In this document: positions 1 through 1,095 of the stretch, piece after piece
How the letters are laid out: each line of letters begins with the position of its first letter
Position numbering within the stretch: position 1 is the stretch's first letter
DNA from: a virus
Taxonomy: Duplodnaviria; Heunggongvirae; Uroviricota; Caudoviricetes
Direction: 5' to 3' (one strand)
IMG/VR virus record: IMGVR_UViG_2703718811_000006
Location: 1 to 4,874 of that record
Length of the DNA stretch: 4,874 bases
Made by a program: the position numbers and the translations under genes
The notes under the pieces: model-generated
The model's input: only the letters and a program-made list of their open reading frames with translations
Database searches by the model: none
What the model was told of the DNA's origin: nothing

Positions 1-53
1 CGTAAAGATAACCAGTAAGTGCCTCCAGACGATCTAACGCATTATCCAGTTTA
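1..53 (-). other. Out-of-frame continuation of the tail-fibre gene: an open frame running off the left window edge that appears to encode the beginning of a peptidase S74-like intramolecular chaperone domain.
   Basis: The minus-strand alternate frame reads ...[20 protein letters not shown] with no stop through position 1. The pattern LDNALD.L..LTGY resembles the conserved segment that follows the SDxRxK cleavage motif in tail-fibre and endosialidase chaperone domains. It is in a different frame from CDS 34..1095. Confidence 0.45.
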
Positions 54-1095
54 CCAGATTTCGCTTGTTGCGTTTATCCGAGCGGATCTGAACATCGTTA
101 AATGATCCGTTTCCGTTTACCGTCAAATTTCCATTAATACCACCATCAAAAGTTTGTGCCTGAGTCCATGTATTGGCAGTAGTAAGCAGTTCTGTTCCTT
201 GCCCGGGGGCTCCAGGATCGCCTTTATCTCCCTTCGGACCCTGCGGCCCTTCCGGACCTGCTGGACCTGCCTCTCCCGGATCACCTTTGTCACCTTTCGG
301 CCCGGGTGCCCCTGCCGGACCTGTGGCTCCTGTATCCCCTTTTGGTCCCTGTGGCCCCGCCGGGCCTGTGGCTCCTGTATCCCCTTTCGGTCCCTGCGGT
401 CCTGCCGGACCTGTGGCTCCTGTATCCCCTTTTGGTCCCTGTGGCCCAGCCGGGCCTGCGGCTCCCGTATCTCCTTTCGGTCCCTGCGGTCCTGCCGGGC
501 CTGCAGCTCCCGTATCCCCCTTGTCGCCCTTCGGTCCCTGTGGACCTCCCGGGTCGCCCTGCTCACCTTTCGGGCCGGTATCCCCCTTATCGCCCTTGTC
601 TCCTTTATCCCCCTTTGGCCCCTGTGGGCCTGCCGGACCCGTATCGCCCTTGTCTCCCTTCTGTCCCTGCGGACCCGTTGCTCCGGTGTCGCCTTTCGGT
701 CCCTGTGGTCCCACCGCCGTTTCCGCTTTCCTCGCCGCTTCCTCTGCCCTGCTGACAGCCGCATCCGCCGCGTCTTCCAGTTTTTTCAGCGACTCAGGGT
801 AATAAGTGCTGTCCTGCTCACGCAGCAGAAACGCATTCAGTGTGCCCGGTTCGTCGTCTGCCATGACGTCAATCTCGCCAGCGCATGACGGCTGACGACC
901 TTCCACGCACAGGGTCACACGATAACGCCCCGGCTCAACCTGCATGGTGTAACTGCCTGTTTCCCCTGGCTGACACTCCGCCACCGTGGTGACTATCACC
1001 GTCTCACTCGTTCGTGTGGCCTTCAGCTCTATGGTGCAGTCCGGTACCGGTTTTCCTGTACCATCCTTCAGCACGCCTGAAATCTGTACTGACAT
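34..1095 (-). CDS. stf: Side tail fibre protein with a lambda Stf-like N-terminal domain and a collagen-like Gly-X-Y repeat domain. As it stands the ORF ends prematurely at the start of the expected C-terminal intramolecular chaperone domain, so it is possibly a pseudogene or contains a sequencing error.
   Basis: The N-terminus [26 protein letters not shown] matches the lambda Stf N-terminus as I recall it ([25 protein letters not shown]). A short coiled-coil-like stretch ([25 protein letters not shown]) is followed by about 57 uninterrupted Gly-X-Y triplets (aa 129-300, nt 196-711), then [42 protein letters not shown], which resembles the approach to the Ser-Asp autocleavage site of peptidase S74-type chaperone domains. 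The ORF then stops after 12 more residues, while a different frame stays open to position 1. Confidence 0.85.
321..500. repeat. Four tandem copies of a 45-bp unit (equivalently two copies of a 90-bp unit) inside the collagen-like coding region, with degenerate copies on both sides.
   Basis: Units begin at 321, 366, 411 and 456 (plus-strand unit ctgtggctcctgtatcccctttYggtccctgYggYccNgccggRc). Copies 321 and 411 differ at only one or two positions, as do copies 366 and 456. On the minus strand each unit encodes a 15-aa [14 protein letters not shown](A/T) repeat. A diverged copy follows at 501-545. Confidence 0.85.

Follow-up and report, generated by a model that had tools for sequence, protein, structure and literature searches.

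The 4,874-nt stretch of DNA analyzed here (the window) begins with a lambdoid side-tail-fiber gene whose reading frame is broken by the absence of one A, ten residues into a C-terminal chaperone domain of the peptidase S74 type. The open reading frame (ORF) that results, 353 aa long, calls for annotation as a partial, frameshifted copy of a tail fiber of 434 aa with an S74 chaperone, and not as a protein of 353 aa. At a probability of roughly 60%, an estimate drawn from position and base rates, the missing A is a technical error made where a draft contig ends, and the gene of the strain itself is intact.

Layout of the Window

The window is the entire E. coli draft contig LOIL01000080.1 (4,874 bp) of assembly GCA_001607685.1. 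Its three genes, all on the minus strand, belong to a lambdoid tail module and make up its distal end (Table 1), and the assignment of the left 1.1 kb to the side-tail-fiber gene of such a module (J-lom-fiber) can be regarded as established. This gene order is present in the window and in every relative, with lom directly upstream of the fiber gene. Roughly 113 N-terminal codons of J lie off the right edge (J of the relatives is 1,129 aa), and the portion of J within the window carries no frameshift. An in-frame stop at the end of J was suspected at one point, since J is given a start at 4864 in the ORF list; the DNA contains no such stop, and J runs off the contig. An Rfam search of the window found nothing.

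Table 1. Features of the window and the basis of each assignment.
Feature	Positions	Strand	Basis
Out-of-frame continuation, 17 residues, equal to 349-365 of the intact fiber (early S74 chaperone)	2..52	-	Translation; identical to intact relatives
Truncated side-tail-fiber ORF, 353 aa	34..1095	-	ORF list, translation, Pfam
Missing-base site, AAA on the minus strand between T53 and C49 (TTT on the plus strand)	50..52	-	Alignment with relatives
Predicted autocleavage motif R338/S339-D-K-R-N-K344	64..84	-	Gapless alignment to S16 gp37 SSDRRIKK and MYRF ICA
Non-collagen distal tip, residues 300-338	85..198	-	Aligns with the stretch of S16 gp37 that precedes the IMC
Collagen-like Gly-X-Y block, ~57 triplets, residues 129-299	199..711	-	Pfam Collagen E=3.8e-26, triplet count
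lom, intact, Ail/Lom outer-membrane beta-barrel, 199 aa	1160..1759	-	ORF list, PF06316, annotation of relatives
J (tail tip/host specificity), open at right contig end	1826..4874	-	ORF list, GpJ Pfam domains

Anatomy of the Fiber

The architecture of the intact fiber is well established. The protein is 434 aa long. Its PF08400 N-domain, by which it is joined to the tail, is followed by a stalk of collagen-like sequence and a short tip, and a Peptidase_S74 intramolecular chaperone (IMC) forms the C-terminus. The PF08400 prophage tail-fiber N-domain occupies residues 1-127 of the window ORF (Pfam, E=8.3e-39), and it is by this domain, together with a location downstream of J and lom, that the ORF is recognized as a lambdoid side-tail fiber. 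The collagen block shows a tandem periodicity of 45/90 nt at 293-519 (TRF). The tip that follows is predicted to form the end of the mature fiber and the docking surface for a Gp38-like adhesin, a role suggested by what has been described for phage S16 and the fPS phages (PMC7917993).

The earlier note on this DNA had recognized a peptidase S74-type chaperone at the C-terminus, and the intact relatives bear this out: residues 339-394 match Peptidase_S74 (PF13884) over the whole profile (positions 1-58 of 58) with 46.5 bits against a cut-off of 22 (E=4.5e-12). Pfam reports no S74 match for the unrepaired window ORF. Once the missing base is restored, a 35-aa peptide of the window reaches the gathering score of the profile (22.1 vs 22.0 bits, E=1.9e-4, profile positions 1-28).

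Among solved structures, the best match of the intact fiber by sequence is gp37 of phage S16 (6f45_A; E=3.7e-13, query 20-133 vs chain 72-190). The alignment covers the tip and the entire IMC without a gap and pairs the cleavage motif with VSSDRRIKKDI of S16. A weak second match is to the eukaryotic MYRF ICA domain (7dc3, E=0.16). The codons of the predicted autocleavage motif (Arg at 84-82, Ser at 81-79, Lys at 66-64) are still in frame in the window, with Ser339 and Lys344 spaced i and i+5 at the start of the domain. Catalytic roles for these two residues are assigned by homology to Ser1264/Lys1269 of T5 pb1 (PMC4690869). Of the Ser-Asp cleavage site put forward in the earlier note, the SD motif stands and the position of the bond does not, as S16 and T5 cut before the Ser, which places the predicted scissile bond here at Arg338/Ser339 (PMC7917993, PMC4690869).

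A complete, in-frame chaperone body after the dyad is present in all relatives and absent in the window. This body is about 95 residues long in the present fibers, compared with 113-133 in S16 and T5. Judged by its sequence, the window ORF as written is not a functional S74 member, and its ancestor, or its true sequence, is one.

The next gene of the relatives, whose position would lie beyond the contig end in the window's own genome, is a 170-aa ORF with a Gp38_N domain (PF21721) that NCBI names "receptor recognizing protein Gp38". Its N-terminal 44 residues match residues 1-45 of S16 Gp38 (6f45_D, E=0.0022), and its C-terminal 125 residues, at the end where Gp38 has a polyglycine-rich receptor-binding domain, show no significant match.

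The Missing Base

The fiber ORF, minus-strand frame 0, ends in ...LVNWIMR at a TAG at 36-34. In the frame one base back, the strand is free of stops from 52 to the contig end, where the continuation is cut off after 17 residues. An open frame of 17 codons has a chance probability of (61/64)^17, or ~0.44, and is not significant alone; what gives this one its significance is homology and not its openness. The run at the junction reads T53-A52-A51-A50-C49 on the minus strand, and the shift of frame falls after Val348 (GTA, 54-52), so that the 353-aa ORF includes the first ten S74 residues (Ser339-Val348) followed by five that are out of frame (NWIMR). With a single A added, the translation runs for 365 residues and matches the 434-aa intact fiber of the nearest relative (L014) at every one of them. 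Thus, the repair proposed in the earlier note restores a continuous frame, and the restored reading is the actual sequence of intact homologs.

The comparison with relatives comprised 16 fetched copies, made up of 15 loci, including the Stx2a phage P13374, and the pot-locus paralog of OkiPb01712 (L018/L019). All 16 contain GGTAAAACTGG where the window has GGTAAACTGG. A scan of 5,426 complete E. coli genomes gave 58 matches at full length, and these, too, all have the former. The run is therefore A4 in every relative and A3 in the window, a one-base loss in exactly the minus-strand A-run (plus-strand TTT at 50-52) to which the earlier note had traced the break. For example, three annotated relatives (L001, L002, and L003) are the same as the window's last 200 nt, in gene direction, with the exception of one column, the extra A. 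The 58 complete genomes are those that match the window's last 110 nt at full length, 51 of the records being in the ≥99% identity band; every match listed spans 111 nt, and none of those listed is at 100% identity. The intact relatives continue for 69 further codons and a stop beyond the left edge of the window, as had been anticipated, with the refinement that the draft contig itself physically stops at this edge.

When the window is aligned with 10-11 relatives together, the missing A is its sole private difference in 4,874 nt, and the number of private substitutions is zero. The nearest copies differ from it by one substitution in 4,399 nt (L014) and one in 2,498 nt (L015). Nineteen longer homopolymers of 5-6 nt occur in the contig, and none differs from those of the relatives.

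Searches for the A3 allele elsewhere were negative. An exact 46-mer carrying it had 0 matches in GTDB species-representative genomes and 0 in JGI metagenomes. Intact fibers with a natural ...LVNWIMR end, which the earlier note had named as evidence that would tell against a frameshift, are absent from the 5,426 complete E. coli genomes, the GTDB species representatives, and the JGI metagenomes. An exact look-up of the 353-aa protein returned the source contig only. A look-up among protein clusters was uninformative, as both the truncated and the intact fiber sequences were missing from them.

The fiber gene has been disrupted independently in near-identical prophage remnants, namely those of L005/L006, L011, and L003.

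Origin of the Deletion

The deletion lies 50-53 nt from the contig end, and only ~2% of positions are so near to either end. Errors in draft assemblies cluster at contig ends, and spontaneous indels in E. coli are roughly tenfold rarer than substitutions. A technical error is favored since a private indel is found at a contig end without any private SNP, a line of reasoning and not a measurement, and since the A3 allele occurs in no other genome or metagenome searched. Counting against an error is that Illumina sequencing seldom miscalls an A4 run and that de Bruijn assemblers retain only well-supported k-mers. A platform prone to homopolymer errors is disfavored by the finding that 0 of the 19 longer homopolymers is altered. 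A count of two samples containing the contig was considered as a possible replicate and set aside, as a 4.79-Mb contig has the same count; the two most likely represent mirrored database copies.

A true A4 to A3 replication slippage, recently inactivating the fiber gene in an unselected, defective prophage remnant, is a tentative but serious alternative. Such remnants do decay. The remnant of the closest complete genome is defective, with an IS21-family element interrupting gpT and a different +1 frameshift in the orthologous fiber gene; L005/L006 carry such a +1 in a fiber gene annotated as "frameshifted"; the fiber of L011 shows C4 to C3; J of L009 shows A6 to A5; and in L003 an IS66 element sits inside the S74 domain. 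Some of the frameshifts of relatives, however, are found in long-read assemblies and may be errors too. A frameshift of stf in lambda provides a precedent (PMC12617516). In addition, J and lom are clean in the window and longer homopolymers are unaffected, so the contig is not generally error-ridden. The absence of any private substitution alongside the single private indel weighs against slippage, as does the A3 allele's absence from every other genome or metagenome searched. The proximity to the contig end does so as well, unless the variant itself caused the break. This last idea has some basis, as the module is present twice in the closest complete genome, the two copies agreeing at every base over 705 nt that include the region; if two such copies truly differed in A3 and A4, a short-read assembly could break off about one k-mer beyond the run. 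If the contig is assumed to stop at its last A3-specific k-mer, and the OkiPb01712 pot-locus copy is used as the only available paralog, k works out at 53 from the left end and at 31 from the right, which is inconsistent.

A variant of the same idea accepts A3 as real and gives it a function: the repeated disruptions would reflect selection to silence the fiber while lom is kept, or else a collagen-stalked product without its IMC would still trimerize and serve a host-side role. This is improbable. More improbable still is programmed recoding, with the A-run acting as a site of -1 ribosomal frameshifting or transcriptional slippage from which both a short and a full-length fiber are made. A -1 shift at G_GUA_AAC would indeed restore the S74 frame, and A-site re-pairing from AAC to AAA is used in some viral slippery sites. 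Nevertheless, every homolog has a single frame with A4, so a shift is not conserved; GGUAAAC is not an X_XXY_YYZ heptamer, as a P-site GUA cannot re-pair with GGU; a run of three A residues is far too short for transcriptional slippage; and no Rfam frameshift element occurs in the window. The least probable reading is that ...NLVNWIMR is the true end of the fiber, which would fold with no help from an S74 chaperone, for instance through collagen triple-helix nucleation, with the similarity in the alternate frame a relic. Nothing is missing from the mature part (residues 1-338), and some collagen-like stalks do trimerize unaided. Yet no homolog with this end exists in any collection searched, past the shift the DNA still agrees at 100% with the IMC that relatives read in frame, which leaves no time for adaptation, and the K1F and phi29 proteins made without their C-termini aggregate (PMC3357383). 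Both of these readings, recoding and a naturally short fiber, are effectively excluded, and a technical error at the contig end remains the preferred account of the missing A.

Predicted Maturation and Effect of the Loss

The fate of the intact fiber can be proposed by analogy with better-known proteins. In S16 gp37, the last 113 residues constitute an intramolecular chaperone that is autocleaved at DLNVS^SDRRIKK, exposing the docking surface for Gp38, and the cleavage motif of T2-like Yersinia phages is DVYIR^SDGRLKI (PMC7917993). In T5 pb1, the Thr1263-Ser1264 bond is cut after the trimer forms, by a mechanism that employs Ser1264 and Lys1269 (PMC4690869). By comparison with S16 gp37, T5 pb1, and the K1F endosialidase, the IMC of the present fiber would nucleate trimer folding of the tip, after which the collagen stalk would probably zipper in a C-to-N direction. 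The IMC would then cut itself off at Arg338/Ser339 via Ser339 and Lys344, and its departure would expose the tip for docking, or capping, by the Gp38-like adhesin, the 170-aa product of the gene that follows. The homologies behind this scheme were found directly, and we infer from them the cleavage, the folding dependence, and the docking of Gp38.

The product as written retains residues 1-348, that is, the whole of the mature part plus the Ser/Lys dyad, and is without ~86 of the 96 IMC residues. The 353-aa ORF is most likely a null allele, its product being predicted to aggregate and not to trimerize or to dock Gp38, since the chaperone body is missing and K1F and phi29 spikes made without their C-termini aggregate (PMC3357383). 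Loss of a side fiber can be tolerated by phages of this kind. Laboratory lambda has no side fibers owing to its stf frameshift, and J-mediated infection is intact, so side fibers are dispensable in lambdoid phages (PMC12617516).

Related Systems and Significance

The closest structural counterpart is S16 gp37/Gp38 (PDB 6f45), a T2-type tip. The tip and IMC are homologous and share the SD-R-K motif, and the logic of an IMC that folds, autocleaves, and leaves a surface on which Gp38 docks would be the same (PMC7917993). The differences are that the element here is a lambdoid prophage with a J-lom-fiber layout and not a T-even myovirus; that the stalk is PF08400 plus collagen repeats in place of the gp37 shaft; that the Gp38-like protein has 170 aa compared with 249 aa, with only the N-terminal 44 residues aligning; and that the IMC is out of frame in the window. 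The S74/IMC domains of the K1F endosialidase, T5 pb1, and MYRF resemble that of the intact relative in the PF13884 match and in the Ser and Lys at i and i+5. In contrast to these, only the first ten residues of the domain are in frame in the window, and the similarity to MYRF is weak (E=0.16).

Two phage genes are comparable in other respects. The stf gene of lambda PaPa, as compared with Ur-lambda, is likewise a frameshifted side-tail-fiber gene downstream of J and lom (PMC12617516). Stf is T4 gp37-like with a separate chaperone, Tfa, and is not a collagen/S74 fiber; moreover, the lambda mutation has been experimentally verified, while that of the window may be an assembly error. The Stx2a phage P13374 of E. 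coli O104:H4 (Sepvirinae) encodes a fiber (ORF65) and a Gp38 (ORF66) with the same C-terminal module and an A4 run (L017). The fiber has collagen repeats, and the gene immediately after it encodes the 170-aa Gp38. O104:H4 genomes show 99.1% identity over the last 110 nt in gene direction. The P13374 fiber differs in being longer (680 aa), with another N-terminal part and another virion type, and identity is limited to approximately positions 1-522 of the window.

The S74/IMC family, the gp37 tip with Gp38, this class of prophage fiber, and frameshifts of lambdoid side fibers have all been described already, and NCBI annotates the intact relatives and marks the "frameshifted" copies. The fiber class, already annotated publicly, joins a lambdoid PF08400/collagen stalk to a tip, IMC, and Gp38 adhesin of the T2/S16 type. 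The 353-aa product should be taken neither as a seed for a new protein family nor as a natural fiber end. If the deletion is an artifact, a private indel within ~50 nt of a draft-contig end is not to be taken as biology. If it is real, it would represent another loss of a side-tail fiber in a decaying lambdoid prophage, like that of stf in laboratory lambda.

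Duplicated Remnants and Conservation of lom

The prophage remnant carrying J, lom, the side-tail-fibre gene and the Gp38 gene is present twice in a single chromosome, as in OkiPb01712, the closest complete genome, and in one further example (see the table). The two OkiPb01712 copies have in common an identical 705-nt block that runs from window position 323 to 1 and continues for 381 nt beyond, while the sequence on either side of it has diverged. This pattern suggests gene conversion or module exchange. Since the remnant is duplicated with a shared identical block, the region lies in short contigs in draft assemblies. 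In the assembly collection, 265 blocks list the exact 199-aa Lom (window 1160–1759, minus strand); lom thus stays strictly conserved even as the genes around it decay. The contigs that bear it are mostly 2–10 kb, so the region is usually repeat-bounded in draft assemblies.

Variation in the Fibre Gene and J

Within the fibre gene, a collagen-like Gly-X-Y stalk contains tandem repeats, and these account for the long spurious ORFs listed on both strands across window positions 123–888. Repeat number differs between relatives, with fibres of 434 vs. 484 aa; in the L011 relative, repeat-number variation takes the form of a ~90-nt deletion. The same fibre gene, or J, is independently disrupted in several relatives, although some of these disruptions come from long-read assemblies and could be errors instead of mutations.

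J of the window differs from that of relatives L001/L004 and L003 by an in-frame 3-nt indel (2890–2892), which falls inside a patch of clustered substitutions (2650–2960), a pattern typical of mosaic recombination in J. Whereas lambda has no ORFs between tail assembly gene I and J, relatives L008–L013 and L016 possess two small ones of 49 aa and 168–172 aa; a Pfam search of these ORFs gave no match.

Features of the window and of related loci (L numbers), with coordinates where available
Feature	Location	Strand	Remark
Collagen-like Gly-X-Y block	window 199–711	−	~57 triplets
45/90-nt tandem repeats within the block	window 293–519	−	tandem periodicity
+1 in fibre collagen region	L005 5792–7097; L006 2792–4097		PGAP label "frameshifted"
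C4 to C3 homopolymer loss, fibre	L011 (window 963–966)		
A6 to A5 homopolymer loss, J	L009 (window ~2769–2774)		
IS66-family (ISCro1) insertion within S74 domain	L003 3640–6400		
Small ORF pair	L008 1628–2384; equivalents in L009–L013, L016		outside window, upstream of J
Remnant copy 1	L005, trp/yciEFG/ompW' locus		NZ_AP042676.1 (OkiPb01712)
Remnant copy 2	L018/L019, potAB locus		NZ_AP042676.1 (OkiPb01712)
Second doubled remnant	L010/L011		GCA_026135265.1

A Fibre Module Shared with Phage P13374

The O104:H4 outbreak lineage of E. coli has P13374 as its Stx2a-converting phage. The phage genome (L017, NC_018846.1) carries at L017 2142–4783 the same fibre C-terminal module in intact form, with the AAAA run, and ORF65 and ORF66 correspond to the fibre and a 170-aa Gp38 gene. 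The N-terminal part of the P13374 fibre is different and longer. Lambdoid remnants thus have the C-terminal module in common with a phage of the Sepvirinae.
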